Assembly (NCBI GenBank): GCA_044222065.1 | Contig: JBGAOA010000003.1 | Span: 40,302 to 104,301, forward strand | Reading direction: 5' to 3' | Source: Candidatus Eiseniibacteriota bacterium | GTDB lineage: Bacteria > Eisenbacteria > RBG-16-71-46 | DNA: 64,000 nt | Shown here: positions 14,695 through 32,849 of the stretch, piece by piece | Position numbering within the stretch: the stretch's first letter is position 1 | Layout of the letters: each line of letters opens with the position of its first letter | The notes under the pieces: generated by a model | Told to the model about the DNA's origin: nothing | What the model saw: only the letters and a program-made list of their open reading frames with translations | Databases searched by the model: none | Translations under genes and position numbers: made by a program

Positions 14695-14696
14695 AG

Positions 14697-14733: not shown

Positions 14734-14739
14734 GCGCGG

Positions 14740-16080
14740 TCAGCGGGCCGCGCCCGTGAGGTCCGCGGGCAGGCGCGGCGAGGCGAGCAGCGTCTCGTAG
14801 AGCGACCAGCGCCGGTCGGGATGCGCCTCGTCGCCGCCGTTCGCCGCGAGCCAGTCGTTCACGATCTTGCGGCCGAGCCAGTAGTTCACGACGTACGTGC
14901 GGTAGCGCCCGGCGAAGCTCAGGTCCTTCTCGGCGCGCTCCTTCGTGCGCAGCCCGAGCGTCGTCGCGCGCTCGATCGCCTGCTCGCGCGTGAGGTGGCC
15001 GTCCAGCCACTGGCGCGCGTTCTCGGTGCCGAAGCCCGCGAGTCCCTCGAGAGCCTCGCGCACGCGCGCGTAGCGGTCGTACTCGCGCGGATCGAGCCCG
15101 GCGAGCGGGAACAGCGTGCCCTTCTCGAACGCCGTCCGCTCCTCGCCCGGGAACGCGATCTCGGGCGCGACCACCGCCGTGCCCTCGGCGATCAGCGACT
15201 GCGGCGAATAGAGCGGATAGATCTGGAACTCGCGCCAGCCGCGCTCGCGCGCGAGCGCGCGCTCGAGCAGCAGGTTGTAGACGTGATGGCCGGGGTAGCC
15301 CTCGTGGCACGCGAGGTCGATCGCGCGGTCGATGTAGATCGGCAGGTCGGTGTTCACCTGGATCAGGCTGCGCGCGCCGCCCTGGTACCAGTTGTAGCCG
15401 CTCCACGGCTGGTCCTTCACGTACTCGACCGTGAACGTCTCGGAGTCGGGCAGCGCGAGGTGTGCCTTCGTGCGCCGGCGCGCCTCCGCGATCGCGGCGT
15501 CGAACACCGCCGCGAACTTCTTCGGCGGGATCACGAAGCGCCGGCGGTAGGCCTCGAGCCGCGCCGTGAGCGGACCCGGTCCGGGCAGCAGCGAGTCGAG
15601 CGCCGCGAGCGCGGGCGCGAGCGTCGAATCCTCGACGGGCGGCGCGACGACGTCCGACAGCGCCTTCGACTCCGCATCGAAGCCCGGCTTCTCACCCTCG
15701 AGCATGCGGGTGCGGAACGACAGCGCGGCGAGCTGCGCGCGCACGTAGCGGTGGCGGAGCGGCCACAGCGAGTCCGGGCTCGCGGCGGGCGCGCCCGCGA
15801 GTGCCCCCACGATCGAGTCCGCTTCGGCGCGGATGCGCGCGAGCGAGATCGAGTCGTGATCGGCCTCGACCTTCCACTCGGGCGGCCCGTAGTAGGCGTC
15901 CACGTAGTCCGGGTCGTGGCGCCCGAGCGCGAGCGCGAGCTTCACGTAGCGCTCGGCGGCGCGCTCGAGCACGGCGGGGTCGGGCGACTTCGCGGCGGGC
16001 GCGCAGCCAGCGAGCGCCCCGAACGCGATGAGGGCGATTGCGGCGAACGGGCGTCTCGAGGATCGGATCACGTCGGTCAT
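14740..16080 (-). CDS. Lipoprotein, DUF885-like putative zinc metallopeptidase
   Basis: Lipobox LAGC; HEGYPGHH motif and downstream AEG. Confidence 0.7.
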   Translation of the reverse strand: MTDVIRSSRRPFAAIALIAFGALAGCAPAAKSPDPAVLERAAERYVKLALALGRHDPDYVDAYYGPPEWKVEADHDSISLARIRAEADSIVGALAGAPAASPDSLWPLRHRYVRAQLAALSFRTRMLEGEKPGFDAESKALSDVVAPPVEDSTLAPALAALDSLLPGPGPLTARLEAYRRRFVIPPKKFAAVFDAAIAEARRRTKAHLALPDSETFTVEYVKDQPWSGYNWYQGGARSLIQVNTDLPIYIDRAIDLACHEGYPGHHVYNLLLERALARERGWREFQIYPLYSPQSLIAEGTAVVAPEIAFPGEERTAFEKGTLFPLAGLDPREYDRYARVREALEGLAGFGTENARQWLDGHLTREQAIERATTLGLRTKERAEKDLSFAGRYRTYVVNYWLGRKIVNDWLAANGGDEAHPDRRWSLYETLLASPRLPADLTGAAR

Positions 16081-16897: not shown

Positions 16898-18505
16898 ATG
16901 GAATTGATCGAGTCGCACCTCGACACGAAGAGCGAGGAGTTCCAGACCAACGCCGCGCACCACCGGGCGCTCGCCGCCGACCTCAAGGCGCGGCTCGCCG
17001 CGGTGAAGCAGGGCGGCGGCCCCGAGCTGGTGAAGCGCCACACCTCGCGCGGCAAGTTGTTCGTGCGCGAGCGCATCGAGCGCCTGCTCGATCCCGGCAC
17101 CGCGTTCCTCGAGCTGTCGCCGCTCGCCGCGAACGGGCTCTACGAGGGCGAGGCTCCGAGCGCCGGCATCGTCACCGGCATCGGCGTCGTGAAGGGCCGC
17201 ACCGTGCTCGTCGTGGCGAACGACGCGACCGTGAAGGGCGGCAGCTACCTCCCGATGACCGTGAAGAAGCACGTGCGCGCTCAGGAGATCGCGCTCGAGA
17301 ACCGGCTGCCGTGCGTGTACCTCGTGGACTCCGGCGGCGCGTTCCTGCCGCTCCAGGCCGACGTGTTCCCCGACCGCGACCACTTCGGGCGCATCTTCTA
17401 CAACCAGGCGCGCATGTCGGCGCAGGGCATCGCGCAGGTCGCGATCGTCATGGGCTCGTGCACCGCGGGCGGCGCGTACGTGCCGGCGATGAGCGACGAG
17501 GCCGTGATCGTGAAGAACCAGGGCACGATCTTCCTCGGCGGCCCGCCGCTCGTGAAGGCCGCGACGGGGGAAGAGGTGACGGCCGAGGAGCTGGGCGGCG
17601 GCGACGTGCACACGCGCATCTCGGGCGTGGCCGATCACCTCGCCGACGACGACGCGCACGCGCTCGAGATCGCGCGCGACATCATTTCGCACCTCGGCGC
17701 GGTGCCGCGCGCCGCACTCGACCTCGCCGCGCCCGAGCCGCCGAAGTACGACCCGGCCGAGATCTACGGCCTGCTGCCGACCGAGCTGCGCAAGCCGGTG
17801 GACATGCACGAACTGATCGCGCGGCTCGTGGACGGCTCGCGCTTCCACGAGTTCAAGGCGCGCTACGGCACGACGCTCGTCACCGGCTTCGCGCACCTGA
17901 ACGGCGTGCCGGTCGCGATCCTCGCGAACCAGGGCGTGTTGTTCAGCGACAGCGCGCTCAAGGCGACGCACTTCATCGAACTCGCGAGCCAGCGCGGCAC
18001 GCCGCTCCTGTTCCTGCAGAACGTCAGCGGCTACATCGTCGGCAAGCAGTACGAGCACGGCGGGATCGCGAAGGACGGCGCGAAGATGGTGCACGCGGTC
18101 GCGAACGCGCCGGTGCCGAAGCTCACGGTGATCGTCGGCGGCAGCTTCGGCGCCGGCAACTACGGCATGTGCGGGCGCGCCTACCAGCCGCGCTTCCTCT
18201 TCATGTGGCCCGGCAGCCGCATCAGCGTGATGGGCGGCGAGCAGGCCGCGAGCGTGCTCGCGCAGGTGAAGTCGGCGCAGCTCGAGGCGGCGGGGAAGTC
18301 GCTCTCGGCCGACGAGGAGCGCGCGATCAAGCAGCCCGTGCTCGAGAAGTACGAGACCGAGGGCAGCCCGTACTACTCGACCGCGCGCCTCTGGGACGAC
18401 GGCGTGATCGATCCGGCCGAGACGCGCACGGTGCTGTCGCTCGCGCTCGCCGCGGCGCTCAACGCGCCGATCCCGCCCGCGAAGTTCGGCGTGTTCCGGA
18501 TGTAG
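16898..18505 (+). CDS. liuB: Methylcrotonoyl-CoA carboxylase beta (carboxyltransferase) subunit
   Basis: [53 protein letters not shown], terminal FGVFRM. Confidence 0.9.
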
Positions 18506-18516
18506 GAGGGGGGAAC

Positions 18517-19326
18517 GTGCGCGCGATCGAAACGCGGACGATCCAGAGCTGGTCCCACCTGCAGGACGAGCTGTTCCTCGACGCGCTGGACCAGCGACTG
18601 GACCGCTTCCGTTCGCCGTTCCTGTTCCGCGGCATGGATCGCGCGACGTGGAACCTCGCGACGACGCTCATGCGGCTCGGCGGCGAATTCGCGCGGCTCG
18701 AGCGTCCGATGCTGCGCAACTTCCGAAAGTACGCGCCCAACGCCGTCGTCGAGCAGGACACGGTGTGGAACTGGCTCGCGCTGGCACAGCACCACGGACT
18801 TCCCACGCGGCTCCTCGACTGGACGTTCTCGCCGCTCGTCGCCGTGCACTTCGCCGTGTGGAAGGACGAGCACATGAAGGAGCCCGGCGCGATCTGGATG
18901 GTCGACTCCTGGGACGTGCGTCGGTACTACCCGGAACGAGTCGAGAAGGTGGCGCGTCGCGAGTACGCGGCCGGACTGGACGTCCACATGCTCTCGGAGG
19001 TGTTCCAGTCGCTCGACCAGCTCGACGAGTTCGGCGACCCGCCGATCGCTCTGTTCTTCGAGCCGCCCTCGATCGACGACCGCATCGCGAATCAGGCCGG
19101 AGTGCTCTCGGTGCTGTCGGACCCGGGGATCGCGATGGACGACTGGCTCGTCACGCGTGACGTGCGAACGATCAAGCTCGTGATCCCGCCCGAGCGGAAG
19201 TGGGAGATCCGCGACAAGCTCGACCACTGCAACATCAACGAGCGGGTGCTGTTCCCGGGGCTCGACGGCCTCAGTCAGTGGCTGAAGCGCTACTACAGCC
19301 CGGGTGCTGGGCGGGGAAAGCCGTGA
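18517..19326 (+). CDS. FRG domain-containing protein
   Basis: GTG after AGGAGG; FLFRG, AQHHGLPTRLLDWTFSPLVAVHFA, RIANQAG, LFPGLDGL. Confidence 0.88.
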   Translation: MRAIETRTIQSWSHLQDELFLDALDQRLDRFRSPFLFRGMDRATWNLATTLMRLGGEFARLERPMLRNFRKYAPNAVVEQDTVWNWLALAQHHGLPTRLLDWTFSPLVAVHFAVWKDEHMKEPGAIWMVDSWDVRRYYPERVEKVARREYAAGLDVHMLSEVFQSLDQLDEFGDPPIALFFEPPSIDDRIANQAGVLSVLSDPGIAMDDWLVTRDVRTIKLVIPPERKWEIRDKLDHCNINERVLFPGLDGLSQWLKRYYSPGAGRGKP

Positions 19327-20169: not shown

Positions 20170-20215
20170 TTGACGAAGTTTGACCCGAGGTTCAAATTTC
20201 GACGCGACGTTCAAG
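20170..20215 (+). promoter_or_regulatory. sigma70-like promoter overlapped by two tandem 18-bp operator-like sites
   Basis: TTGACG (20170-20175)-N17-CAAATT; TTTGACCCGAGGTTCAAA (20179-20196, imperfect palindrome) and TTCGACGCGACGTTCAAG (20198-20215), 14/18 identical. Confidence 0.55.
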
Positions 20216-20233: not shown

Positions 20234-20917
20234 GTGTCGCCTGGCCGATCCACCGTCGCGAAGTCCCCGCACGTGCGCGCGAAGCGCGAGCGCCGCCGCG
20301 AGGAGATCCTGCACGCCGCGCTGCGCGCGTTCCGCGAGCGCGGCTACCACGCGACGACGCTCGACCACATCGCCGAGCGGCTCGGCGTGCGGAAGACGGC
20401 GCTCTACCACTACTTCCCGGACAAGGAAGCGATCCTCCACGAGTGCCACCAGGATTCGCTCGTCCAGCTCGAGCGCATCCTCGAGGCGTCGCGCGCGCTG
20501 CGCTCCCCGCGCGAGCGGCTCCGCTACCTGATCCGCGAGCACGTGCGCGTCATGACCGACACGCTGCGCGGCTCGCCGCTCGCCTTCGAAGTGCAGGCGT
20601 TCTCGGAGGAGCGCCGCACCGAGATGATCGCCGGGCGCGACGCCTACGAGCGCGAATTGCGCCGCACGATCGAGCGCGGCGTGCGCGCCGGCGAGTTCCG
20701 GCCCGTGGATCCCAAGCTCGCCGTGTTCGCGATCCTCGGCGCGATCAACTGGATCGCGCGCTGGTACCGCCCCGAGGGCGAGCTGCAGGCCGACACGATC
20801 GGCGACGCGTTCGCCGACCACCTCATGACCGGACTCGGCCCCGCGCCGCGGCTGTCGCTCGCCCGGCGCCCGCGCGCGGCCGCGCCGGCCGCAACCCGGA
20901 AGAGAACGACGCGATGA
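20234..20917 (+). CDS. TetR/AcrR family regulator (KstR2-like C-terminus)
   Basis: GTG after GGAGG; GYHATTLDHIAERLGVRKTALYHYFPDKEAIL HTH; ILGAINWIARWYRPEG. Confidence 0.9.
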   Translation: MSPGRSTVAKSPHVRAKRERRREEILHAALRAFRERGYHATTLDHIAERLGVRKTALYHYFPDKEAILHECHQDSLVQLERILEASRALRSPRERLRYLIREHVRVMTDTLRGSPLAFEVQAFSEERRTEMIAGRDAYERELRRTIERGVRAGEFRPVDPKLAVFAILGAINWIARWYRPEGELQADTIGDAFADHLMTGLGPAPRLSLARRPRAAAPAATRKRTTR

Positions 20918-21966
20918 AAGCGATTCGGCTGCTCGAAGGAGGCGCGCCGCTCGAAGTGCGCGACGTGCCCGATCCCGTGTGTGGCGACGACGACGTCGTG
21001 GTGCGCGTCGCGGGCTGCGGGGTGTGCCACACCGACATCGGCTTCTGGAAGGACGGCGTGCCGACGCGCAAGAGCCTGCCGCTCACGCTCGGGCACGAAG
21101 TGAGCGGCGTCGTCGAGTCCGCGGGCGCGGCGCACGCGGCGCTCGTGGGCCGCGAAGTGATCGTGCCGGCCGTCATTCCGTGCGGCGACTGCGACCTGTG
21201 CCGCGCCGGCCGCGGGAACGCGTGCCGCCGCCAGATCATGCCGGGCAACGACCTCGACGGCGGCTTCGCCGAGCGGCTCGCGGTGCCCGCGCGCGGCCTG
21301 TGCGTCGTGAAGGAGCGCGCCGGCTACGACCTCGCCGAGCTCAGCGTGATCGCCGACGCCGTCACGACGCCGTACCAGGCGGTCGTCCGCAGCGGGCTTC
21401 AGCCGAACGACCTCGCGATCGTAATCGGCGCCGGCGGCGTCGGCGGCTACGCGGTGCAGGTCGCGGCCGCACTCGGCGGGAAGGTGGTCGCGGTGGACGT
21501 GGACGACGCGAAGCTCGCGCTGATCGCGGAGCACGGCGCGTCGGCGACGTTCAATTCGCGCACGACGGACTTCAAGACGCTCAAGAAGGAGATCGGCGCG
21601 AAGGCGGCGGCGTGGGGCTGCCCGCCAATCGGCTGGAAGGTGTTCGAGTGCTCGGGCTCGACCGCGGGGCAGGAGACGGCGTTCGGACTGCTCGGGCACG
21701 CGGGCACGCTGCTGGTCGTGGGCTTCACGCTCGGCAAGATCGAGGTGCGGCTCAGCAACCTCATGGCGTTCGACGCCACCGTGCAGGGCACGTGGGGCTG
21801 CCGCACCGAGCTCTACCGCGAGGCCGTCCAGCTCGTCACGAGCGGGCGCGTCACCTTGAAGCCGTTCATCGAACGGCACCCGATGAGCCGCGGTCCGGAA
21901 GTGATCCGGCGCGTGGCGGACCACGAGATCACGAAGCGGGCGATCCTCGAGCCCGACTGGAGCTAG
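20914..21966 (+). CDS. had: 6-hydroxycyclohex-1-ene-1-carbonyl-CoA dehydrogenase
   Basis: MDR motifs GCGVCHTD, GHE, CxxCxxC; Had-type VPAVIPCG, QIMPGND, ADAVTTPYQA, RLSNLMAFDA, GTWGC; pathway context. Confidence 0.88.
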   Translation: MKAIRLLEGGAPLEVRDVPDPVCGDDDVVVRVAGCGVCHTDIGFWKDGVPTRKSLPLTLGHEVSGVVESAGAAHAALVGREVIVPAVIPCGDCDLCRAGRGNACRRQIMPGNDLDGGFAERLAVPARGLCVVKERAGYDLAELSVIADAVTTPYQAVVRSGLQPNDLAIVIGAGGVGGYAVQVAAALGGKVVAVDVDDAKLALIAEHGASATFNSRTTDFKTLKKEIGAKAAAWGCPPIGWKVFECSGSTAGQETAFGLLGHAGTLLVVGFTLGKIEVRLSNLMAFDATVQGTWGCRTELYREAVQLVTSGRVTLKPFIERHPMSRGPEVIRRVADHEITKRAILEPDWS

Positions 21967-21970
21967 GACC

Positions 21971-23074
21971 ATGCTGAAAGTCCACACGCTGATCGAGAAC
22001 TGGAAGCCGCAGCACATCCGCTACGAACTGAAACCCGCGCGCGACCCGAAGGGCAACGCGGTGGACGGGCTCTTCAACGCCTGGATCGTGATCGACAATC
22101 CGCCGCAGCTGAACAGCTACACGACCGAGATCGCGCGCGAGATCGTGCTCGCGTTCCGCGAGGCGAGCATGGACCGGCGCGTCGTGGCGGTCGTGTTCAC
22201 GGCGACCGGCGACAAGGCGTTCTGCACCGGCGGGAACACGAAGGAGTACGCCGAGTACTACGCGGGCAATCCGCAGGAATACAAGCAGTACATGCGCGTC
22301 TTCAACGACATGATCGACGCGATCCTGCGCTGCGACAAACCCGTCATCAACCGCGTGAACGGCATGCGCGTCGCGGGCGGCCAGGAGATCGGCATGGCGT
22401 GCGACTTCAGCATCGCCGTGGACACCGCGCGCTTCGGACAGGCGGGGCCGAAGCACGGCTCCGCGCCCGACGGCGGCTCGACGGACTTCCTGCCGCTCTA
22501 CGTCGGCTTCGGTCACGCGATGGAGAGCGCCGTGCTGTGCCAGCTCTGGAGCGCGCACAAGGCCGCGTTCCTCGGGCTCATCAACGAAGTCGTGCCGGTG
22601 CTGAAGGTGGACGGGCGGTTCGTTCCGAACCCGCTCGTCGTGACGGATCGATTCGTGGACGAGTGGGGCCGCATCGTCTACGGCGACTTCCGCACCGGCC
22701 CCGATGCCGAGGCCGCGAAGGCGACCCTCGCGAAGGCGACGACCGACCTGTCGAAGCTCGACGAAGCGGTCGAACGCGCGTGCACGCAGCTCCTGATGCT
22801 CATGCCCGACTGCGTGTCGAAGACCGTGAACAGCGTGCGCAAGCACAAGCAGCGTCACTGGGACCAGAACAGCATCACGAATCGCGAGTGGCTCGCGCTC
22901 AACATGATGACCGAGGGCCGCGCCGGCTTCCGCGCGTTCAACGAAGGTCCGAAGGACCGCCGCGAGGTGGACTTCATCAAGCTGCGCCAGCTGCTCGCGC
23001 AGGGCCATCCGTGGGACGACGAGCTCTATCGCGCGATCTCGCCCCAGTGTCAGACCGAGGGCGCGCCGCGCTGA
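21971..23074 (+). CDS. oah: 6-oxocyclohex-1-ene-1-carbonyl-CoA hydrolase (Oah/BamA/BzdY)
   Basis: DNPPQLNSYTT, AFCTGGNTKEYAEYYAGNPQEYKQYMR, QAGPKHGSAPDGGSTDFLP, WLALNMMTE. Confidence 0.95.
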   Translation: MLKVHTLIENWKPQHIRYELKPARDPKGNAVDGLFNAWIVIDNPPQLNSYTTEIAREIVLAFREASMDRRVVAVVFTATGDKAFCTGGNTKEYAEYYAGNPQEYKQYMRVFNDMIDAILRCDKPVINRVNGMRVAGGQEIGMACDFSIAVDTARFGQAGPKHGSAPDGGSTDFLPLYVGFGHAMESAVLCQLWSAHKAAFLGLINEVVPVLKVDGRFVPNPLVVTDRFVDEWGRIVYGDFRTGPDAEAAKATLAKATTDLSKLDEAVERACTQLLMLMPDCVSKTVNSVRKHKQRHWDQNSITNREWLALNMMTEGRAGFRAFNEGPKDRREVDFIKLRQLLAQGHPWDDELYRAISPQCQTEGAPR

Positions 23075-23102
23075 GCCGCGGCGCCGAAGGGAGCGGGCGG
23101 CG

Positions 23103-23852
23103 GTGGATCTGGGACTGAAGGGCCGGGCGGCGATCGTCACGGGCGGCGCGTCGGGGATCGGCGCGGCGGTCGCGGCCGAACTCGCGCGCGAGGGCTGCGA
23201 CGTCGCGATCGTGGACCTGAAGGCGCCCGCGCCGGACTCGCCGCCGATGCGCGCGATCGCCGACGCCGGGCGGCGCGCGCTCGCGTTCGCCGCCGACGTG
23301 CGCGACTTCGCGCTCGCCGAGCGTACGGTGAAGGACATCGCCGCCGCGTTCGGCCGCCTCGACGTGCTCGTGTGCTCGGCCGGCATCACCGACGACGCGC
23401 TGTCGTGGAAGATGGACGAGGCGCAGTGGGACCGCGTGCTCGCCGTGAACCTGAAGGGCTGCTTCAACTGGTCGCGCGCCGCCGCGGCGATCCTGAAGGA
23501 GCGGCGCTTCGGCCGCATCGTGAACGTCGCCTCGATCAACGGCCTGCGCGGCAAGTTCGGTCAGGCAAACTACGCGGCGTCCAAGGGCGGCGTGATCGCG
23601 CTGTCGAAGACACTCGCGCGCGAGCTCGGCAAGTTCGGCGTCACCGTGAACGTCGTCGCGCCCGGCATGGTGCGCACCGAGATGGCGTCGTCGCTGCCGC
23701 CGGACGTGATCGAGAAGGCCGTGGACGAGACGGTCGTCGGCCGCATCGCGAGTCCCGAGGACTGCGCGGCGGCGGTCGCGTTCCTGTGCTCGGAGCGCGC
23801 CGCGCACCTGACCGGGCAGATCGTGAAGGTGGACGGTGGCCAGTACCTGTGA
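23103..23852 (+). CDS. SDR oxidoreductase (3-oxoacyl/3-hydroxyacyl-CoA dehydrogenase, FabG-like)
   Basis: TGGASGIG, YAASK, GQANY, TGQIVKVDGG. Confidence 0.9.
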   Translation: MDLGLKGRAAIVTGGASGIGAAVAAELAREGCDVAIVDLKAPAPDSPPMRAIADAGRRALAFAADVRDFALAERTVKDIAAAFGRLDVLVCSAGITDDALSWKMDEAQWDRVLAVNLKGCFNWSRAAAAILKERRFGRIVNVASINGLRGKFGQANYAASKGGVIALSKTLARELGKFGVTVNVVAPGMVRTEMASSLPPDVIEKAVDETVVGRIASPEDCAAAVAFLCSERAAHLTGQIVKVDGGQYL

Positions 23853-23873
23853 GCGCGGCGTGAGGGGCGCGCG

Positions 23874-25028
23874 ATGAGCCGCGTCGCGGTCGTCGGCATC
23901 GGGCACACGGCGTTCGGCCGCCGCGCCGACGCGAGCGTGCAGGAACTCGCGTGCGAGGCGTTCCGCGAAGCGCTCTCCGACGCGGGCCTCGAGCGCGACG
24001 CGATCGAAGCCACGGTCGTCGGCTCGGTGCCCGAGTACCACAAGCAGCGTTCGCTCGCGGGCGTCGTGAACGAGTACCTCGGACTCGCGCCGCGCCCCAC
24101 GTGGCTGACCGAAGCGGCGTGCGCGTCGGGGAGCGCCGCAATCCGCACCGCGTGGACGCAGATCCGCGCCGGGGTGCACGACGTGGTCGCGGTGATCGGC
24201 TGCCAGAAGATGACCGAGCTTCCGACCGCCGACATCCTCGCCCTGATGGGCCGCGTGGGCGAGGTGCAGTGGGAGTCCGTGTTCGGCACGACGTTCCCCG
24301 GCTACTACGCGATGTTCGCGCGCCGTCACATGCACGAGTTCGGCACGACGCGCGAGCAGCTCACGGCGGTCGCGGTCAAGAACCACCACTACGGCGCGCT
24401 CAACCCGCTCGCGATGTTCCGCAAGGAAGTGACGGCCGAGAAGGCGCGAGCGTCCGAAGAGGTCGCCGCCCCGTTCAACGTGTACGACTGCTGCGCGAAC
24501 GCCGACGGCGCCGCGTGCGTGATCCTCGCGTCCGAGCCGCGCGCGCGTTCGCTGGCGAAGCCGCCGGTGTGGCTCGCGGGACTGGGTGCTGCGAGCGCGA
24601 GCATGAGCGTGCTGCGCCGGCCATCGCTCGCGGGGCTGCCGAGCGCCGAGCGCGCCGCCGCCGACGCGTACGCGATGGCGGGCGTGCACGCGAAGCGCGT
24701 GCGCGTCGCCGACGTGCACGACTGCTTCACGATCGCCGAGATCCTCGCCTACGAAGACCTGGGCTTCTGCGCGCGCGGCGAGGGCGGACGTCTCGCCGAG
24801 TCGCGCGCGACGTGGATCGGCGGGCCCGTGGCCGTGAACGTGGACGGTGGCCTCAAGGCGAAGGGCCACCCGATCGGCGCGACGGGCGTCTCGATGACGT
24901 GCGAGATCGTGAAGCAGCTGCGCGGCGAGGCGGGCGAGCGGCAGGTGCCGAACGCCGACGTCGGGCTCACGCACAACGTCGGCGGCATCGGGCAGTACTG
25001 CTTCGTGCACGTGCTCACGCGGGAGTGA
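23874..25028 (+). CDS. Thiolase, SCP-x/archaeal type
   Basis: EAACASG catalytic Cys, HDCFTIAE, GHPIGATG, HNVGG. Confidence 0.9.
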   Translation: MSRVAVVGIGHTAFGRRADASVQELACEAFREALSDAGLERDAIEATVVGSVPEYHKQRSLAGVVNEYLGLAPRPTWLTEAACASGSAAIRTAWTQIRAGVHDVVAVIGCQKMTELPTADILALMGRVGEVQWESVFGTTFPGYYAMFARRHMHEFGTTREQLTAVAVKNHHYGALNPLAMFRKEVTAEKARASEEVAAPFNVYDCCANADGAACVILASEPRARSLAKPPVWLAGLGAASASMSVLRRPSLAGLPSAERAAADAYAMAGVHAKRVRVADVHDCFTIAEILAYEDLGFCARGEGGRLAESRATWIGGPVAVNVDGGLKAKGHPIGATGVSMTCEIVKQLRGEAGERQVPNADVGLTHNVGGIGQYCFVHVLTRE

Positions 25029-25032
25029 CGCG

Positions 25033-25500
25033 ATGTTCAAGTGGTTCGGGATCGTCAGCTTCACGCCGCACACGAAGGTCGCGGCGTTCGCCGAACACCT
25101 GAAGGACGGGCGCATCGTGGGCTCGCGCTGCACGGCGTGCGGTGAGCGTAGTTTCCCGCCGCGCGCCGACTGCGAGCGCTGCCTGTCGCCGGCGTTCGAG
25201 TTCGTCCCGATCGCGCCGCGCGGGCGACTGCTCACGTGGACGCGCATCCACGCCGCGCCGACGGGGTTCGAAGCGCTCGCGCCGTACGCGCTCGGCGTCG
25301 TGGACCTGGAAGACGGCGGCCGCGCGCTGGCGCCGTTCGGCTCGAGTGTGACGCCCGACCTGATTCGAATCGGAATGGAACTGGACCTCGTGCCGCGCCT
25401 GCACGAGGAGATCGAGGACATCCGGGTGGACTACACGCTCGAGCGGCCGGGCGCCGGATCGGGCGCGGCGGCGGGCACGGCCCCGCCGGGGAGGAGTTGA
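25033..25500 (+). CDS. DUF35 Zn-ribbon/OB-fold thiolase partner
   Basis: CTACG...FPPRADCERC, GRLLTWT, PYALGVVDLEDG; follows the thiolase. Confidence 0.9.
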   Translation: MFKWFGIVSFTPHTKVAAFAEHLKDGRIVGSRCTACGERSFPPRADCERCLSPAFEFVPIAPRGRLLTWTRIHAAPTGFEALAPYALGVVDLEDGGRALAPFGSSVTPDLIRIGMELDLVPRLHEEIEDIRVDYTLERPGAGSGAAAGTAPPGRS

Positions 25501-25503
25501 ACG

Positions 25504-26262
25504 ATGGCGTTCCAGCACACGATCGAAGACGGCGTCGCGACGCTGACGCTCGCGAGCCCGCCGCTCAACATCCTCACGCGCGCCGCACTCGCCGAACTGC
25601 GTGCCGCGCTCGAGGCGCTCGCGCGCGAGCCGGGGCTGCGCGTCGTGCGGCTCGTCGCCGCGGGGAACCACTTCTCGGCCGGCGCCGACGTCGGTGAGCA
25701 CCTGGCGCCACAATACCGCGAGCTGATCCCCGAGTTCGCGAGCACGATCGAAGCGCTCGCCGCGTTCCCGCTGCCCGTGATCGCGGCGGTGCGCGGGCGC
25801 TGCCTCGGCGGCGGCTTCGAGCTCGTGCAGGCGGCCGACGTGATCGTGGCGGGCGAGGGCGCGTCGTTCGGCCAGCCCGAGATCCTGCTCGGCGTCACGG
25901 CGCCCGCGGCGTGCGTGCTGCTGCCTCGGCTCGGCTCGCGCGGCGCGGCGGCGGAGCTGCTCTTCACGGGCGATCCGATCCCGGCGAAGCGCGCGCTCGA
26001 ACTCGGATTCGTGCAGCGCGTCGTCGAGGACGCCCGCGTCGAGGACGAAGCGCTCGCGCTCGCGAAGCGGATGAGCCGCCACAGCGCCGTCGCGCTCGAG
26101 TTCACGAAGCGCACGCTGAACGAGACCGCGCCGCTCGCGCGCGGTGCGGCGCTCGGCGTGGCCGCGTCGATGTACGTGAACGAACTCATGAACGCCGCCG
26201 ACCCGAACGAGGGCCTGCGCGCGTTCCTCGACAAGCGCCCGGCCGAGTGGAGGCACGCATGA
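25504..26262 (+). CDS. dch: Cyclohexa-1,5-diene-1-carbonyl-CoA hydratase (crotonase family)
   Basis: PPLNIL, HFSAGADVGEHL, VRGRCLGGGFEL, GQPEILLG, EGLRAFLDKR; directly upstream of bcrC. Confidence 0.8.
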   Translation: MAFQHTIEDGVATLTLASPPLNILTRAALAELRAALEALAREPGLRVVRLVAAGNHFSAGADVGEHLAPQYRELIPEFASTIEALAAFPLPVIAAVRGRCLGGGFELVQAADVIVAGEGASFGQPEILLGVTAPAACVLLPRLGSRGAAAELLFTGDPIPAKRALELGFVQRVVEDARVEDEALALAKRMSRHSAVALEFTKRTLNETAPLARGAALGVAASMYVNELMNAADPNEGLRAFLDKRPAEWRHA

Positions 26263-27428
26263 ACGCGGTGCGCGTGTTCCCCGAGTGGCGCGGCCTCGAG
26301 CTCGACGACACGCTGCGCGCGTGCGTGGACCTGCTCGAGGACACCGACTTCCCGACCGCGAAGCGCTGGCGCGAGGCGGGCGGCAAGATCGTCGGGCACT
26401 TCCAGGTGTACTTCCCCGAAGAGATCGCGCACGCGGCCGGCATGTTGCCGTTCAAGATGCGCGGCGCGCCGATCGAGCCCAAGCGCGCCGACTCGCGCTT
26501 CGGCTCGTACCTGTGCTCGATCCTCAAGACCTCGCTCGAACTCGCGCTCTCGAACCGCGTCGAGCTGGAACTGTTCGTCACGCACCCGATCTGCGACGCG
26601 GCGCGCAACCTCGCCGCCGTGTTCGGGCGCAACTTCCCGTACCCGTGCCAGATCCTCTACCTGCCGCAGAACGCGGCGTCGCCCGCGGCCCGCACGTACC
26701 TGCGCGGCGAATACGACCGCGTGCGCGAGCTGTGCGGCACGATCGCGGGTCGGCCGGTCACCGACGACGCGCTGCGCGCCTCGATCGCCGTGTTCGACCG
26801 CAATCGCGCGCTGCTCCGCGAGCTGTACGCGATCAAGCGCGAGACGCCGTGGCTCGTCGCCGCGCACGAGGCGTACGCGCTCGTCGCGCTCGGCGGACTG
26901 ATGCCGCGCGAGGAGCACAACGAGCTGCTCGAACACGTGCTGCCGCGGCTGCGCGCCCGCGGCCTCAAGCCGCAGGACCGCGTGCGCATCGTGTTCGAGG
27001 GCGGCTTCTGCGAACAGCCGCCGTTCGAGCTGATCCGCTCGATCGGGCGCTCGTGCTACGTCGTGGACGACGACCTGCTGATCGGCCTGCGCTGGATCCT
27101 CGAGGACGTCGGCGCGTCGGGCGATCCGCTCGACGCGCTCGCGCACGCCTACCTCGACCGCTCGAGCTACAGCCCGGTGCAGCACGACCCGAGGAAGCCC
27201 AAGGAGGCGATGCTGCTCGAACGCGTGCGCCGCTCGAATGCCCAGGCCGTGATCCTCGCCGCGGCGAAGATGTGCGAGCCCGGGCTCGAGGAGCAGGTCG
27301 CGTACGTGCACGCGCTCGAAGAGGCGAAGCTGCCGTACTTCGTGACCGAGTTCGAAGAGAACATGACGAGCTTCGACACGCTCGAGATCCAGCTCGAGAC
27401 GTTCGTCGAGAACCTGCTGTTCGTGTGA
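26259..27428 (+). CDS. bcrC: Class I benzoyl-CoA reductase subunit C
   Basis: VYFPEEIAHAAGMLP, SYLC, PICD..RNL, TDDALRASI, FCEQPP, KMCEP; these blocks match my recollection of Thauera BcrC. Confidence 0.85.
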   Translation: MNAVRVFPEWRGLELDDTLRACVDLLEDTDFPTAKRWREAGGKIVGHFQVYFPEEIAHAAGMLPFKMRGAPIEPKRADSRFGSYLCSILKTSLELALSNRVELELFVTHPICDAARNLAAVFGRNFPYPCQILYLPQNAASPAARTYLRGEYDRVRELCGTIAGRPVTDDALRASIAVFDRNRALLRELYAIKRETPWLVAAHEAYALVALGGLMPREEHNELLEHVLPRLRARGLKPQDRVRIVFEGGFCEQPPFELIRSIGRSCYVVDDDLLIGLRWILEDVGASGDPLDALAHAYLDRSSYSPVQHDPRKPKEAMLLERVRRSNAQAVILAAAKMCEPGLEEQVAYVHALEEAKLPYFVTEFEENMTSFDTLEIQLETFVENLLFV

Positions 27429-27438
27429 GGGAGGGGAG

Positions 27439-28734
27439 ATGAACGGAGCGAACGAGACGAACGGCCTCGTGGGGCGCGCGAACCGCGAAGGCGCGCGGCT
27501 GTTCCGCGAGTGGTTCGACGGACTCGGGCAGGCGGCCGAGGAGGGACGGGGCGGAGCGTACGTGTTCGTCATGGGCAGCCTCGGCGAGCTGCTCACGACG
27601 TTCGACCTGCCGCTCGTGTTCCCCGAGATCAACTCGCTGCAGACCGCGGTGCGGCGCCAGGCGCACGACTACCTGAACGAGGCCGAGGACGTCGGCTACT
27701 CGCCCGACATCTGCGGCTACGTGAAGGCCGACGTCGCGACGCAGCGGCGCGGTGGCGCGCTGCCGATGGGGCGCATCCCGAAGCCGTCGATCGCGGTGCT
27801 CACGAACGCGTGCAACACGTACATCAAGTGGGCCGAGATCTGGGAGCGCATGTACGGCATGCCGTCGTACGTCCTCGACGTGCCCGCCTCGCGCCAGGAC
27901 GGCCAGCCGGTGCGGCGCGGCGCGATGGGCTTCGAGCGCGACCGCGCGTACGTCGCGGCGCAGCTCAAGGAGCTGATCGCGGTGCTCGAGGACGTCACGA
28001 AGAAGCGCTTCGACATCGACCGGCTGCGCGAGGCGATGGGCCACGCGAACGCGATGAGCCGCGCGTGGAAGCGCGTGCTCGAGCTGAACCGCAGCCGGCC
28101 GTCGCTGTTCAACGCGCTCTCGGACGGCACGATCTACCTGGGCGTGTGCAACGGCTTCCGCGGCAAGGCCGAGGGTGCGCGCTACTTCGAGGACCTCGTC
28201 GAAGAGATGGAGTTCAAGCGCGCGAACGCGATCGGCACGCTCGTGGACGAACGCTTCCGGCTCGTGTTCGTCGGCGTGCCGTGCTACCCGATCTTCCGCC
28301 GCTTCACCGAGCTGTTCTCGGAACACGGCGGCACGTTCGTCAGCTCGACCTACCTGTGGTTCGCCTCGGGCGGCACGAACCTCGGCTTCGAGTACGACCT
28401 GAAGGACCCGATCGAGAGCCTCGCCGAGGGCGTGCTCGTGGGCGTGAGCGACGCGATGGACAGCATGTTCTTCCAGACCGACGCCCTCGCCTCGATCGTG
28501 GACGAGTTCGGCGTGGACGGCGTCGTCTACCACCCGATCAAGAGCTGCCGCACGACGTCCACCGGCCTCGCCGACAACCGGCGCGCGCTGATGGAGCGCC
28601 GCGACGTGCCGAGCCTCTTCATCGAGTCGGACATGATGGACCGGCGCGTCGTCTCGGAAGCGCAGCTCAAGAACCGTATCGACGCGTTCTTCGAAGGCCT
28701 GCAGTCGCGCCGGAACCAGGCCGCGGCCGTCTAG
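27439..28734 (+). CDS. bcrB: Class I benzoyl-CoA reductase subunit B
   Basis: PEINSLQ, DICGYVKAD, NACNTYIKW, KRFDIDRLRE, IKSCR, KNRIDAFF: three Fe-S Cys in BcrB positions. Confidence 0.85.
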   Translation: MNGANETNGLVGRANREGARLFREWFDGLGQAAEEGRGGAYVFVMGSLGELLTTFDLPLVFPEINSLQTAVRRQAHDYLNEAEDVGYSPDICGYVKADVATQRRGGALPMGRIPKPSIAVLTNACNTYIKWAEIWERMYGMPSYVLDVPASRQDGQPVRRGAMGFERDRAYVAAQLKELIAVLEDVTKKRFDIDRLREAMGHANAMSRAWKRVLELNRSRPSLFNALSDGTIYLGVCNGFRGKAEGARYFEDLVEEMEFKRANAIGTLVDERFRLVFVGVPCYPIFRRFTELFSEHGGTFVSSTYLWFASGGTNLGFEYDLKDPIESLAEGVLVGVSDAMDSMFFQTDALASIVDEFGVDGVVYHPIKSCRTTSTGLADNRRALMERRDVPSLFIESDMMDRRVVSEAQLKNRIDAFFEGLQSRRNQAAAV

Positions 28735-28749
28735 GGAAAGGGCATCGCG

Positions 28750-29571
28750 ATGGCGTACGCAGCGGGCGTGGACGTCGGCTCCACGCAGACGAAGGCGGTG
28801 GTGGTGAACGAGCGCGGCGCGATCGTCGGCCGCGCGCTCACGATGACCGGCGCGAACGTGACGCAGGCGGCCGAAGAGGCATTCGCCGCATCACTCGCGA
28901 ACGGCGACGTGCGCGAGGAAGAGGTCGAGTACGTGATCGGCACCGGCTACGGCCGCTACAAGGTCACGTTCGGGAACACGCAGGTCACCGAGATCAGCTG
29001 CCACGGGCGCGGCGCGGTGCACATGTTCCCGGGCACGCGCACGGTCGTGGACATGGGCGGCCAGGACACGAAGGCGATCCGCGTCTCCGAGCGCGGCGAG
29101 ATCGTGGACTTCTGCATGAACGACAAGTGCGCGGCGGGCACCGGGCGCTTCCTCGGCGCGGCGTCGTCGGCGCTCGACATCCCGCTCGACCAGCTCGGCG
29201 CGACCGCGCTCCGGGGCGAGCGGCCGGTGAAGATCTCGACCACGTGCACCGTGTTCGCCGAGTCCGAGGTGCTGTCGTGGCTCGGCAAGGGCAAGAAGAT
29301 CGAGGACATCCTGCTCGGCGTGCACCAGAGCATCGCCGGCCGCTCGACCGGTCTGCTGTGGCGCGTCGGCATCGAGCCCGAGGTGACGTTCACGGGCGGC
29401 GTGGCGAAGAACGTCGCGATGATCGAGTCGCTCGAGAAGTCCATCGGCGCGAAGGTGAACGTGAGCCCGGACTCGCACTTCATGGGCGCGCTCGGCGCCG
29501 CGCTGTTCGCGCTCGACCACATCCGCGCGAGCCGCACGCCCGCGGGCCTCAAATCGGGGGTGGCGTCGTGA
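28750..29571 (+). CDS. bcrA: Benzoyl-CoA reductase ATPase/electron-activation subunit (short BcrA/BzdQ-like)
   Basis: ASKHA motifs [48 protein letters not shown]. Confidence 0.75.
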
Positions 29572-30389
29572 GGATGACGGCCGGCATCGACGTGGGTTCG
29601 ACGTACACGAAGGCCGTGGTCGTGGACGAGTACGGCGCGATCGCGGGCCGCGCGATGGAGCCGACCGGCTTCCGGCTCACCGAGGTCGCGAACCGCACGC
29701 TCGAGGCGGCGGCCGCGAAGGCCGGCTGCCGGCGCGAGCACGTCGCGTACGTCGTCGCGACCGGCTTCGGGCGGCACCAGGCGACGTTCGCGGACATCCA
29801 CGTGACCGACCTGACGGCCGCGGCGCGCGGCGCGTCGAAGCTGTTCCCGCTCACGCGCACGATCCTCGACGTCGGTGGCCAGACGATGAAGGCGACGAAG
29901 CTCACCGAGGACGCGAAGGTCCACTCGTTCCGGCTCAACGACAAGTGCGCCGCGGGCACGGGGGCGTTCCTCGAAAAGACCGCGCGCTACATGGGCTACG
30001 CGACCGAGGAGATCGGGCCGCTCGTCGAGACGTCGAAGGGCACGACGAGCATCTCGGGCGTGTGCGCCGTGTTCGCCGAGTCCGAGGTCATCAACCACCT
30101 CTCGCAGGGCGTGGCGCCCGCGGACATCATGCACGGCGCGATCGTGTCGCTCGTCGGCCGCTCGGTGCAGCTCATGAAGCGCGTGAAGGCCGAGCCCGAG
30201 TACACGCTCGTCGGCGGCATCCTGCGATTCGAAGCGATGGGGCGCGTCGTGCAGGAGGCGATCAAGACCGAAGTGAACGTGCCCGCGGGCGACCTCGTGC
30301 AGTTCGTCGCCGCGTACGGCGCGGGGCTGCTCGCGCAGCGCCGGCTCGACGTGCGCTCGGCCGGGGGCGCACGCGCGACGAGCGCGTGA
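29568..30389 (+). CDS. bcrD: Benzoyl-CoA reductase second ATPase subunit (BcrD/BzdP-like)
   Basis: GTG overlapping the upstream stop; [41 protein letters not shown]. Confidence 0.75.
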
Positions 30390-30721
30390 GCGTCGGCATG
30401 GGCAACGCCCCGGAATCGGACGCGAAGGACGAGCGCGCGCAGCGCTCGCTCGCGAACCTCGTGCGCGCCGAGGCGCTGCGGGCGGATGCCGAGGAGCGCA
30501 TCCGCCCCGATCCCGCGCGGCTCGAGCAGGGCTGGACGTTCCGCTTCGCGATCGAGTCGTCGCGCGCATCGGATCTCGTGACGCTCTACGAGTCGAGCGG
30601 CTTCGAGGTGATCGCCGATCCCGTGAAGGTCGAGCAGGTCGGCGACGAGTGCGCCGACTGCCGACTGATGCTGCAGCGCACGTACGTCGCGATCTACACG
30701 CGGACGCGCGAAGCGGGCTGA
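30386..30721 (+). CDS. Small hypothetical protein with CxxC
   Basis: GTG overlaps the bcrD stop (alternative ATG 30398); GWTFRF...LYESSGFEV...ECADC...YVAIYTR; GC3-rich codon usage. Confidence 0.75.
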   Translation: MSVGMGNAPESDAKDERAQRSLANLVRAEALRADAEERIRPDPARLEQGWTFRFAIESSRASDLVTLYESSGFEVIADPVKVEQVGDECADCRLMLQRTYVAIYTRTREAG

Positions 30722-30725: not shown

Positions 30726-32849
30726 CTACCCCCGCTCGATCAGCTCCCGGAGCATCGCGGGGTCCACGGGCTTCGTCAGGTGGTGGTCGAAGCCGGCGTC
30801 CTTCGCGCGCCTTCGATCCTCTTCCTGACCGAGACCCGTCAGCGCGATCAGGCGCGGGCCGTCGCCGTTCCGCTCGCGCAGCGCGCGCGCGACCTCGTAG
30901 CCGCTCATCCCCGGCAGCCCGATGTCGAGCAGCACGACCTTCGGGTTCCCGAGCCCGAACAGCTCGATCGCCGCGGGGCCGTCGTGCGCGACCTCGACGT
31001 CGTGACCCCAGAGCCGCAGCAGTTCGGCGAGGCTCTCGGCCGAATCGCGGTTGTCGTCCACGACGAGGATGCGCATCGCGTCGGCCGCGGGTCCCGTCGC
31101 GGCGGAAACACGCGCGCCGCGCTTCACGCGCTCGGCCGCGTCGGCGGGGGCCGCGACGCGCGTGAGCCGCAGCGTGAACGTGCTGCCCTTGCCCGTCCCG
31201 CCGCTCTCGGCGCGGATGCCGCCGCCGTGCATCTCGGTGAGCCGCTTCGCGAGCGACAGTCCGATGCCGAGCCCGCCCTGCGCGCGCGTCACCGTGGGAT
31301 CGAGCTGCGTGAACGGCTCGAACACCCGCTGCAGCATCTCCTTCGGAATCCCGACGCCGTCGTCGCTCACGCGCACGATCGCGTCGCTCGACGACGTGCT
31401 CAGCGCCAGGTCGATGCGCCCGCCGTCGCGCCCGTACTTGACCGCGTTCGAGAGCAGGTTGCCGAGGATCTGCGCGATGCGCGTTGGGTCGGCGTGCACC
31501 CACACGGGCTGCGCGGACGGGGTCAGGCGCAGCGACTGGCTTCGGGCGCGCGCGAGCGGCTCGGCGTCCTCGGCCGCCTCGGCGACGAGCGCGTTCAGCT
31601 CGACGGGCTCGCGGCGCAGCACGATCTTGCCCTGGCTGATGCGCGACGTGTCGAGCAGGTCGTCCACGAGCCGCGACATGTTCTGCACCTGCCGCCGCAT
31701 CATCGCGTGCGCCTGACGCTCCTCGGGCGGCGTGCCCTCGGCGCGCGCCTCGAGCACGTGCAGTGCGTTGCTGAGCGGCGCGAGCGGGTTGCGCAGCTCG
31801 TGCGCGAGCACGCTCAGGAACTCGTCCTTGCGCTCGTGCGCGATGGACAGCTCGCGCATGCGCTCGTCCATGCGCTGCTCGGCGGCGACGACGCTGCGCG
31901 TCACGGGCAGCGCGGTGCTGCCGCCCACGATGATGCCGGCGACGAGCATGACGAGGACCGCGATCAGGCCCACGCGGATCGCGCGGCGCGCCGCGTGCTG
32001 GGCCTCGACGACGTCCGTGCTCGACAGGCTCTGGATGCCGTCGGCGATCAGCAGCTCGAGACGCTTCGACACGTCGAGGAAGCGGTCGAGCGTGCGGTTC
32101 ATGCGCTCCCCGGCATCGAACGCCGCGTGGCCGCGCGCGACCACCTCGTCGAAGCCGGGCTGAAGGTGCGAGAGCGCCTCGAGTTCCTCGGGGCCGAGCT
32201 TCATCTCGTGGTAGCGCGCGAGCCGCTGCTGGAAGTCGAGCGCGATGGTCTGGATGCGGCCGCGCGGCTCGGGCTCGCGCAGTCGCAGCGCGACGCCGAG
32301 CGTGCGCGACAGCGCCGCCGCGTCCGCTTCGAGTGCTGCGGCCTCGCCGATCTTGCGCGGGCCCTCCTTGCCCTTGCCGTCGAGGAGCGGCACGAGGTCC
32401 TTGCGGAACACTTCCTCGAGCGCCTCCGAGGCGCGCGCGAAGTCCGACACGAGCGCGCGCCGCGCGTCGCTCTGCGTGAGCAGCGAATCCGCGAGCGCCG
32501 CAAACCCCGCGTGCGCTTCGACCATGCGGCGACCGATCGCGCGCGAGGAGTCCGTGCGCGCGATCGTCGCGTAGCGCCCGACGAGGCTGCGGAACGCGCC
32601 GTAGCGCGCGACGATGCTCGAGTAGTCGGCGTTGCGCGCCGTCGTCAGCTCGCGCAGCACGGCCGCGCGCGTGTCGCTCACGTTGAGCGCCAGCTCGAAC
32701 GACTGCGACGTCGGCGGGTCCTGCACCGCCATGATCGTCGTGAGCGCGCGGTCGATGAGCGCGAGGCGGTGCGCGACGAACAGGCCGATGCCGACGAGCA
32801 GCAGCAGCAGCAGTCCGAAGCCGAGTCCGAGCTTGGTCGCGGTGTTCAT
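30726..32849 (-). CDS. Hybrid sensor histidine kinase (2 TM, HisKA, HATPase, REC)
   Basis: KDEFLSVLAHELRNPLAP, NLLSNAVKY, DDGVGI, GGLGIGL; REC VLLDIGLPGMSG...HLTKPVD. Confidence 0.95.
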   Translation of the reverse strand: MNTATKLGLGFGLLLLLLVGIGLFVAHRLALIDRALTTIMAVQDPPTSQSFELALNVSDTRAAVLRELTTARNADYSSIVARYGAFRSLVGRYATIARTDSSRAIGRRMVEAHAGFAALADSLLTQSDARRALVSDFARASEALEEVFRKDLVPLLDGKGKEGPRKIGEAAALEADAAALSRTLGVALRLREPEPRGRIQTIALDFQQRLARYHEMKLGPEELEALSHLQPGFDEVVARGHAAFDAGERMNRTLDRFLDVSKRLELLIADGIQSLSSTDVVEAQHAARRAIRVGLIAVLVMLVAGIIVGGSTALPVTRSVVAAEQRMDERMRELSIAHERKDEFLSVLAHELRNPLAPLSNALHVLEARAEGTPPEERQAHAMMRRQVQNMSRLVDDLLDTSRISQGKIVLRREPVELNALVAEAAEDAEPLARARSQSLRLTPSAQPVWVHADPTRIAQILGNLLSNAVKYGRDGGRIDLALSTSSSDAIVRVSDDGVGIPKEMLQRVFEPFTQLDPTVTRAQGGLGIGLSLAKRLTEMHGGGIRAESGGTGKGSTFTLRLTRVAAPADAAERVKRGARVSAATGPAADAMRILVVDDNRDSAESLAELLRLWGHDVEVAHDGPAAIELFGLGNPKVVLLDIGLPGMSGYEVARALRERNGDGPRLIALTGLGQEEDRRRAKDAGFDHHLTKPVDPAMLRELIERG

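Follow-up and report, generated by a model that had tools for sequence, protein, structure and literature searches.

A 64,000-nucleotide stretch of the genome of a Candidatus Eiseniibacteriota bacterium (GenBank assembly GCA_044222065.1, contig JBGAOA010000003.1, positions 40,302 to 104,301; here called the window) carries at 20234-30721 a real and intact operon of twelve genes that, judged by its sequence, encodes a class I benzoyl-CoA reductase of the MBR type together with enzymes that would open the ring. The kind of enzyme is already known, the MBR type having been isolated and solved; the form of the operon is new and very widespread. Its new element is a small gene directly behind the reductase genes, which is the operon's one truly unexplained part. 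To our knowledge, work on class I benzoyl-CoA reductases has so far dealt almost exclusively with a few Proteobacteria. In soil, groundwater and sludge, many uncultured bacteria, among them Gemmatimonadota, Acidobacteriota, Eisenbacteria and Chloroflexota, have the MBR type.

As the window has a G+C content of 72%, raw lists of open reading frames are crowded, and we set gene frames by third-position G+C (GC3) plus family-profile matches. An earlier reading made from the letters alone, here called the sequence-only reading, had listed eleven genes plus a CxxC gene at these coordinates; both the coordinates and the gene list are correct, with GC3 frames and family scans in agreement. The features are as follows.

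20170-20214, + strand: promoter/operator-like region, TTGACG and two GTTCAA half-sites
20234-20917, + strand: tetR, TetR family regulator (TetR_N and TetR_C_24)
20914-21966, + strand: had, 6-hydroxycyclohex-1-ene-1-carbonyl-CoA dehydrogenase, Zn-ADH family
21971-23074, + strand: oah, 6-oxocyclohex-1-ene-1-carbonyl-CoA hydrolase, the step that opens the ring
23103-23852, + strand: short-chain dehydrogenase (SDR)
23874-25028, + strand: thiolase, SCP-x/archaeal type
25033-25500, + strand: DUF35 protein, ChsH2-type OB-fold plus zinc ribbon, partner of the thiolase
25504-26262, + strand: dch-like, crotonase-family hydratase, putative dienoyl-CoA hydratase
26259-27428, + strand: N, MbdN-like reductase gamma subunit (BcrC in the earlier reading)
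27439-28734, + strand: O, MbdO-like reductase beta subunit, substrate-binding (earlier BcrB)
28750-29571, + strand: Q, MbdQ-like ATPase alpha subunit (earlier BcrA)
29574-30389, + strand: P, MbdP-like ATPase delta subunit (earlier BcrD)
30398-30721, + strand: small gene, 107 residues with CxxC, fifth gene of the reductase block
30726-32849, opposite strand: hybrid histidine kinase, the next gene after the operon

All twelve operon frames are open, with GC3 of 0.91-0.97, similar to the flanks. Intergenic distances run from -4 to +28 nt, the had ATG overlapping the tetR stop codon, and the operon ends at 30721 because the histidine kinase gene begins at 30726 on the opposite strand.

The sequence-only reading had recognised the operon of a class I, ATP-dependent reductase for aryl-CoA rings, with Dch, Had and Oah steps, which the sequence evidence supports, and had named the subunits BcrCBAD, which it does not. 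Three types of class I benzoyl-CoA reductase, BCR, MBR and BZD, are distinguished (PMC11971306). The NCBIfam cut-offs of the BCR type (TIGR02259/60/61/63) were all missed (A 214.5 of 578 bits, B 214.3 of 486.55, C 265.3 of 421.15, D 123.4 of 312.85), as were those of the BZD type (TIGR03190/91/92; N 106.2 of 453.8 bits, O 86.7 of 448.6, Q 190.1 of 380.2). Among solved structures, each subunit instead has its own Mbd counterpart as best match: N scores 528.9 bits with MbdN (PDB 9g87_B), against 117.3 with HadC and 104.8 with BzdN; O 516.4 with MbdO (9g87_A), against 114.4 with HadB and 87.5 with BzdO; Q 416.3 with MbdQ (9gai_D), against 213.4 with a HadI-type activator; and P 280.4 with MbdP (9gai_C), against 186.2 with MbdQ. 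Dehydratase or Bzd chains thus reach 87-213 bits, compared with 280-529 for the Mbd counterparts. Counted on the HMMER midline, N is about 59% identical to MbdN (229/385, with no gap over 385 residues) and O about 54% identical to MbdO (230/425). By Pfam family, N and O belong to PF06050 (HGD-D; 197.9 and 222 bits) and Q and P, encoded by two different ATPase genes, to PF01869 (BcrAD_BadFG ATPase; 215.9 and 161.4 bits); both also pass TIGR00241 (255.2 and 198.7 bits, cut-off 125.4). On this sequence evidence the reductase is of the MBR type with the gene order N-O-Q-P.

The MBR enzyme itself comes from Thauera chlorobenzoica 3CB-1 (PMC11971306). Its structures (MbdONQP; PDB 9g87, 9gai, 9gal, 9gba) have chains of 388/445/269/273 residues, compared with 389/431/273/271 for N/O/Q/P here, and the conserved cysteines of our N and O all align with cysteines of MbdN and MbdO. 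The operon differs in its gene order, in host phylum and in a TetR that is not MbdR-like; it has no ferredoxin gene, and the 107-residue gene stands after P. With BcrCBAD of Thauera aromatica and BadDEFG of Rhodopseudomonas palustris it shares the enzyme class, the heterotetramer logic and a sister position in the tree described below, and Bcr models are the top NCBIfam matches of N (265.3 bits) and O (214.3 bits). However, the A-like subunit has 273 residues and covers the BcrA model (432 positions) only from 213 to 432, and the representatives that pass TIGR02260 (P0146 and P0152) are only 36-40% identical to O. BzdNOPQ of Aromatoleum sp. CIB (PDB 8s02) has ATPase subunits of similar size, about 270-290 residues, whereas O and N match it at only 87.5 and 104.8 bits. 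BZD-type dimers are described as associating transiently and the MBR type as a stable tetramer, BCR and MBR types both being heterotetramers (PMC11971306); a heterotetramer of the BCR/MBR type fits the operon because two different ATPase genes are present. The dehydratase HadBC with its activator HadI (PDB 3o3m, 4eht) shares the BCR/HAD radical-enzyme superfamily, the HGD-D fold family and the ATPase type, but scores only 114-117 bits, and has one activator gene against two ATPase genes here, where ring-opening enzymes form the operon context. In the dehydratases, ATP use is described as catalytic, not stoichiometric (PMC11971306).

The residues expected to hold the iron-sulfur clusters are strongly conserved. 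In the ATPase subunits, Cys127 and Cys166 of Q are kept in 69/69 relatives and Cys125 and Cys164 of P in 43/43; by comparison with the HgdC structure, these two cysteines per subunit are the putative ligands of a bridging [4Fe-4S] cluster. Cys92, Cys125 and Cys370 of O, kept in 81/81 relatives, align with Cys95, Cys128 and Cys380 of BzdO, the three ligands of its catalytic [4Fe-4S] cluster (PMC11971306). Glu63 of O, in the motif FPEINSLQT, is common to MbdO and aligns with a glutamate of HadB; it is probably the equivalent of BzdO Glu65. Where BzdO has His131, which contacts the catalytic water (PMC11971306), O has Tyr128 and MbdO a phenylalanine. In N, Cys86, Cys112, Cys251 and Cys339 are kept in 72/72 relatives, Cys130 in 70/72 and Cys266 in 69/72. 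All six align with cysteines of MbdN and only three with cysteines of BzdN, where six cysteines hold an [8Fe-9S] cluster (PMC11971306).

A tree of the O subunit also places it with the reductases. In a library of representatives at 50% identity, O has 1638 relatives at E <= 0.001; among the best 150 representatives, 91 are full-length, and in an NCBIfam scan of these TIGR02260 recognises two above its cut-off and the HadB model one. We built a quick IQ-TREE tree of 48 rows, comprising the window, 15 loci picked to span phyla, and 14 reductase-like and 18 dehydratase-like representatives; the MbdO and BzdO sequences are absent from it, and the remaining representatives were left out. In this tree all 31 reductase-like rows form one clade (Shimodaira-Hasegawa-like approximate likelihood ratio test, SH-aLRT, 100), apart from the dehydratase-like rows. 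Grouping of the B and C subunits with 2-hydroxyacyl-CoA dehydratases, which the sequence-only reading had named as the outcome that would speak against it, was thus not found. Bcr-type rows, the two that pass TIGR02260, are sister to the remaining reductase-like rows. The window falls within a compact clade (16 rows, nine named phyla) whose terminal branches measure 0.12-0.27. The branches of P0140 and P0199 are long and join in the tree, and where these two belong is unsure. A further representative, P0121, was considered as MbdO and rejected (479.6 bits), and a plasmid collection yielded only relatives at 27% identity or less.

The operon is spread over many phyla. In a locus survey with one genome per species, at least 519 of 598 candidate stretches encode a relative. 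The best 80 of these at least 519 loci are 69-86% identical and span ten named phyla: Gemmatimonadota (42), Acidobacteriota (9), Eisenbacteria (7), Chloroflexota (5), Planctomycetota (3), Pseudomonadota (2), Actinomycetota (2), and Verrucomicrobiota, Bacteroidota and Elusimicrobiota (1 each), with seven unnamed. The 120 best protein clusters have 78-100% identity. The order N-O-Q-P is kept in every locus long enough to show the block, and where the sequence reaches at least 6.5 kb upstream of N, which holds for 44 loci, tetR is present in 32, had in 28, oah in 27, SDR in 26, dch-like in 25 and thiolase/DUF35 in 11. Within Eisenbacteria, O is matched at E <= 1e-60 in 62/206 genomes; 46/206 have the close type (at least 72% identity), and the other 16 have only a paralogue at 34-41%. 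The nearest loci and proteins carry the name Candidatus Eisenbacteria, in keeping with the uncultured FCB-related (Fibrobacterota-Chlorobiota-Bacteroidota) host proposed earlier; the same reading's description of the lineage as unexpected does not hold, with the operon in 46/206 Eisenbacteria genomes and, among the best 80 loci, in ten named phyla. Near-identical DNA occurs in 16 metagenome runs from activated sludge, bioreactor, wastewater and biofilm. Benzoyl-CoA genes in Eisenbacteria or Gemmatimonadota metagenome-assembled genomes (MAGs) are mentioned briefly, without a type, in passages of two sources (10.1101/2025.11.25.690425, PMC10581226). Across phyla the proteins are 69-92% identical, and this high identity suggests that the operon has spread laterally as one self-contained unit. 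In a sample of 401 genomes from the class of an Acidiferrobacteraceae locus (L080), the close type was found only in the genome of that locus.

The genes upstream of the reductase block would take its product through ring opening and on to shorter CoA esters. Judged against curated NCBIfam equivalog cut-offs, Had passes TIGR03201 (452.6 bits, cut-off 338.65) and has the ADH_N and ADH_zinc_N domains, and Oah passes TIGR03200 (557.8 bits, cut-off 464.45). The hydratase had been called dch; it stands at the right place in the operon and TIGR03189, the Dch model, is its top NCBIfam match, narrowly above EchA19 (161.9 bits), but at 171.2 bits it falls below the cut-off of 292.5, so that it is dch-like only. 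The SDR matches adh_short_C2 (206 bits) and the FabG-like model NF009466 (236.2 bits, cut-off 222), and may be a 3-hydroxypimeloyl-CoA dehydrogenase, a substrate suggested by gene position alone. The thiolase passes NF004720 (476.6 bits, cut-off 420), scores 184.7 bits with the BbsB model (cut-off 750), and may act as 3-oxopimeloyl-CoA thiolase; its DUF35 partner matches PF01796 (53.7 bits) and PF12172 (48.4 bits) and scores 40.4 bits with the BbsA model (cut-off 250).

The sequences show which genes are present, the families to which they belong, the cysteines for the clusters, and how far the genes are conserved and linked. On these grounds the operon very probably uses ATP to dearomatise benzoyl-CoA, or an analogue close to it with a substituted ring, and then opens the ring. 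Q and P would pair as an ATPase with a single [4Fe-4S] cluster between them and accept an electron from a low-potential donor encoded elsewhere; the dimer would hydrolyse ATP and hand the electron to N, and N would pass it to the [4Fe-4S] cluster of O, where the aromatic ring would be reduced to the cyclic 1,5-dienoyl-CoA. The chemistry at O is modelled on the solved Bzd-type enzyme (PMC11971306). The dch-like hydratase would then add water, Had would oxidise the alcohol, and Oah would open the ring to give 3-hydroxypimeloyl-CoA, which the SDR and the thiolase/DUF35 pair would probably shorten to glutaryl-CoA and acetyl-CoA. TetR would probably repress the operon from a palindromic site, with an aryl-CoA or acyl-CoA as the ligand that lifts repression.

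Several observations weigh against this reading. We know of no member of the close clade with a known enzyme activity, and the identities to the characterised enzyme, about 54% (MbdO) and 59% (MbdN), are modest. Given the change from His131 to Tyr128, proton delivery may differ from that in the solved Bzd enzyme, and the hydratase misses the Dch cut-off. No route to benzoyl-CoA was found in the 94%-complete genome: the benzoate-CoA ligase model TIGR02262 has no match above its cut-off (the best, at 194.6 bits, is an acetyl-CoA synthetase), and PaaK was not found in the genome. NarG was not found either, and the HcrA-like alpha subunit of a molybdenum enzyme on contig C58 stays below its cut-off (836.5 of 994.55 bits). 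The only RNA-library contigs that fit the operon are short, come from a single sludge sample and match the adjacent kinase gene too, which leaves expression unproven; being assembled and possibly of DNA origin, they cannot show transcription, and gaps in their cover carry no meaning.

Some of the same observations bear on the alternatives. The physiological substrate could instead carry a group on the ring (methyl-, hydroxy-, halo- or amino-benzoyl-CoA) and be handled by the same machinery. The closest solved relative was deposited as a 3-methylbenzoyl-CoA reductase, the hydratase falls below the Dch cut-off, as a hydratase of a substituted dienoyl-CoA might, and the genome encodes an HcrCAB-like enzyme. 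Had and Oah, on the other hand, pass cut-offs built on the unsubstituted pathway, an identity of about 54% gives no handle on substrate range, and we saw no operon gene for a methyl-branched or halogenated product. We regard a substituted substrate as rather improbable. Tiedt and colleagues reportedly found in 2018 that the Thauera chlorobenzoica enzyme accepts many analogues; it is said to reduce benzoyl-CoA itself as well, so that the two substrate readings overlap.

That the proteins form instead a 2-hydroxyacyl-CoA dehydratase with its activator is what the NCBI names of close relatives imply ('MAG: Candidatus Eisenbacteria ... 2-hydroxyacyl-CoA dehydratase family protein'), names that arise because the proteins fail the TIGR02260 and TIGR03191 cut-offs. 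N and O do belong to Pfam HGD-D, HadC and HadB models score them at 140-142 bits, and every Bcr and Bzd equivalog cut-off is failed; yet the dehydratase models are missed by far (HadB 142.1 of 750 bits, HadC 140.2 of 700), among PDB chains HadB and HadC reach 114-117 bits where MbdO and MbdN reach 516-529, the tree sets the clade apart from the dehydratase-like rows at SH-aLRT 100, there are two distinct ATPase genes, not one, and the block shares an operon with a Had and an Oah that pass their cut-offs. JGI names the same proteins (P0024, P0047, P0014 and others) 'benzoyl-CoA reductase subunit B'. A dehydratase would thus come as a great surprise, and surveys that go by NCBI names undercount anaerobic aromatic degradation because the genes are labelled dehydratases. 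Still harder to credit is a silent or decaying acquisition without present function in its host. The missing route to benzoyl-CoA, the patchy presence within the phylum (46/206 genomes) and the near-identical operons in other phyla, which suggest lateral spread, would suit it, but the twelve frames are open with flank-like GC3, the cluster ligands are invariant, and 69-92% protein identity across phyla implies strong purifying selection; the RNA-library contigs that fit the operon genes add weak evidence. Dearomatisation of benzoyl-CoA or a close analogue is the reading we carry forward.

The small gene accompanies the reductase closely. It lies right after P in 65/67 loci, 60 by tblastn and five as divergent copies read by eye, and is missing in two (L035 and L037). 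In the Eisenbacteria survey it occurs as a single copy in 44/206 genomes, of which 43 also have the close-type O, and in 0/16 genomes with only the distant paralogue of O. The exceptions, one genome with the small gene only (G197) and three with close-type O only (G043, G031 and G083), are cases in which the gene is on a short contig or the genome is incomplete. Twelve residues are invariant in 43 sequences of the protein (G45, W46, R49, L63, Y64, G68, E70, C85, C88, Y100, T101 and R102), and its motifs are CxxC (Cys85 and Cys88), GWERRF and YTR. An AlphaFold2 model (predicted local distance difference test, pLDDT, 87.5) is confident: after a long N-terminal helix comes a small strand-helix-strand-helix-strand domain, whose last helix directly follows the CxxC. 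Searches for relatives gave little: the Pfam scan matched no family, a profile of the protein against PDB sequences had as its best match an unrelated dynein-docking protein (E 0.0028), Foldseek of the model against PDB returned nothing at E <= 0.001, a wide VIA-align comparison peaked at Z 4.1 with no standout, and Atlas neighbours are 'hypothetical' clusters only. The sequence-only reading had seen the small CxxC gene, but had overlooked its standing as a conserved, unexplained part.

Tentatively, the small protein could be a dedicated fifth component of the reductase, an idea we put forward with some doubt and in two forms. It might form a homodimer with an iron-sulfur cluster or metal held between its two CxxC pairs, feeding or gating electrons to the ATPase module; or it might protect or repair oxygen-labile clusters, together with the hemerythrin domain that some copies carry as a fusion. 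Either form, if true, would help explain how an oxygen-sensitive ring reductase has spread in soil and sludge phyla mostly regarded as aerobes. A complex prediction of Q, P, one 4Fe-4S cluster and the small protein scored 0.01 and 0.11 (mark 0.32) and, run without controls, says nothing either way. In proteobacterial operons a ferredoxin gene stands at the equivalent position; the CxxCxxCxxxCP ferredoxin motif occurs in only 13/80 loci. The conserved fifth gene and the absent ferredoxin gene together pose a testable question, that of electron supply or protection of the enzyme. As for hemerythrin (PF01814), it is fused to the small protein in a Chloroflexota locus (L016, 13038-13880) and in P0271, and also occurs at L053:13340-13891 and L072:5142-5954, being either fused or encoded directly after the small protein in such loci; a hemerythrin-like gene lies near the operon in 12/80 loci, while the genome of the window has no such gene.

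Electrons would have to come from a donor encoded outside the operon. The sequence-only reading had noted a cluster without benzoate-CoA ligase, ferredoxin or 2-oxoglutarate:ferredoxin oxidoreductase, and rightly: in searches of the whole genome, TIGR02262 and TIGR03710 are unmatched on the window's own contig (C126), and the CxxCxxCxxxCP motif occurs in no frame of the 64-kb window (Pfam scans covered the window except ~12146-14740, 55921-57936 and a 2018-residue frame at 57936-63992). The genome has an Rnf operon and three or more sets of 2-oxoacid:ferredoxin oxidoreductase (OFOR) genes, on contigs C89, C41, C12 and C32, as well as a clade II NosZ (855.9 bits, cut-off 625) that offers an anaerobic electron acceptor route. 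The stretch C41:20001-42187 (L091, L092, L082) is a candidate hub for reduced ferredoxin, with a two-subunit OFOR, ApbE with RnfC/D/G, two Rnf-Nqr-family membrane subunits, a three-subunit OFOR, phosphofructokinase, a major facilitator superfamily transporter and an acetyl-CoA synthetase. The last of these, an AMP ligase, was considered as the benzoate-CoA ligase and rejected; it matches the acetyl-CoA synthetase model TIGR02188 at 895.6 bits (cut-off 724.95). The three-subunit molybdenum enzyme at C58:19727-22764 is close to 4-hydroxybenzoyl-CoA reductase (HcrCAB-like) and stands with XdhC and MobA, and at C32:46530-48733 an IorAB-like pair adjoins an ADP-forming acyl-CoA synthetase. Given OFOR, Rnf, the HcrCAB-like enzyme and NosZ, a facultatively anaerobic life with a supply of ferredoxin is plausible.

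The operon is likely repressed by its own TetR. The regulator matches PF00440 (68.5 bits) and PF17932 (117.3 bits), and its GTG start at 20234 has a GGAGG (20223) 6 nt upstream; an alternative longer TTG start at 20180 would fall within the promoter/operator. Its best solved relatives are 3vpr (117.9 bits) and 3dcf (114.5 bits). It was also considered as an MbdR orthologue, which was rejected, MbdR (4uds) scoring 42.9 bits at rank 26. Upstream of the tetR start, TTGACG at 20170 is followed by GTTCAA half-sites at 20190 and 20209, 19 nt apart. Around the inferred tetR start of related loci, the strict palindrome TTGAA(C/T)-N3-5-(A/G)(A/T)TCAA is found in 17/35 and TTGAC in 23/35, and a cross-phylum pattern emerges of TTGAC(A/G), about 17 nt, then GTTCAAA(A/T)TTTGAAC-N4-GTTCAAA (L011, L014, L021, L030, L045, L070 and others), of which the window's copy is degenerate. 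These sites fit a putative TetR operator overlapping a promoter ahead of tetR. A generic sigma-70 scan found no promoter at 20170-20214, and a terminator scan gave one terminator-like site, on the minus strand inside P, fewer than in shuffles.

In other phyla, different feeder genes from aromatic pathways stand beside the one reductase block. These include an IorAB-like oxidoreductase in Gemmatimonadota (L019:14672-16990 and L021:17259-19565), an HcrA/B-like molybdenum enzyme in an acidobacteriotal locus (L059:944-4488), a CoA-transferase, a 4HBT thioesterase and PaaX near the block in Chloroflexota (L016:3562-7471, and likewise L065), and an AMP ligase, a tripartite ATP-independent periplasmic (TRAP) binding protein and an Fnr-like regulator in the Acidiferrobacteraceae locus (L080:88-2946 and 9346-10101). 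Some Gemmatimonadota loci (L015, L019) have a second, distant N/O/Q/Q-like set of 26-41% identity upstream of the operon and, also upstream, an 855-residue protein with Fer2_4, Fer4_20 and Pyr_redox_2 domains (L019:6052-8619).

Within the window, the members of an acyl-CoA carboxylase set lie on both sides of the operon. Its carboxyltransferase lies upstream at 16898-18505 (mmdA-like, 319.4 of 998.8 bits), and 9 kb downstream, at 39757-43420, are an enoyl-CoA hydratase, a 280-residue protein of no family, a biotin carboxylase and a biotin carrier. An FRG-domain protein (18517-19326; PF08867, 95.8 bits) sits between the carboxyltransferase and an outer-membrane barrel gene. At the far end, the 2018-residue open frame at 57936-63992 on the minus strand has a coding-type GC3 of 0.96 and runs past the end of the window.

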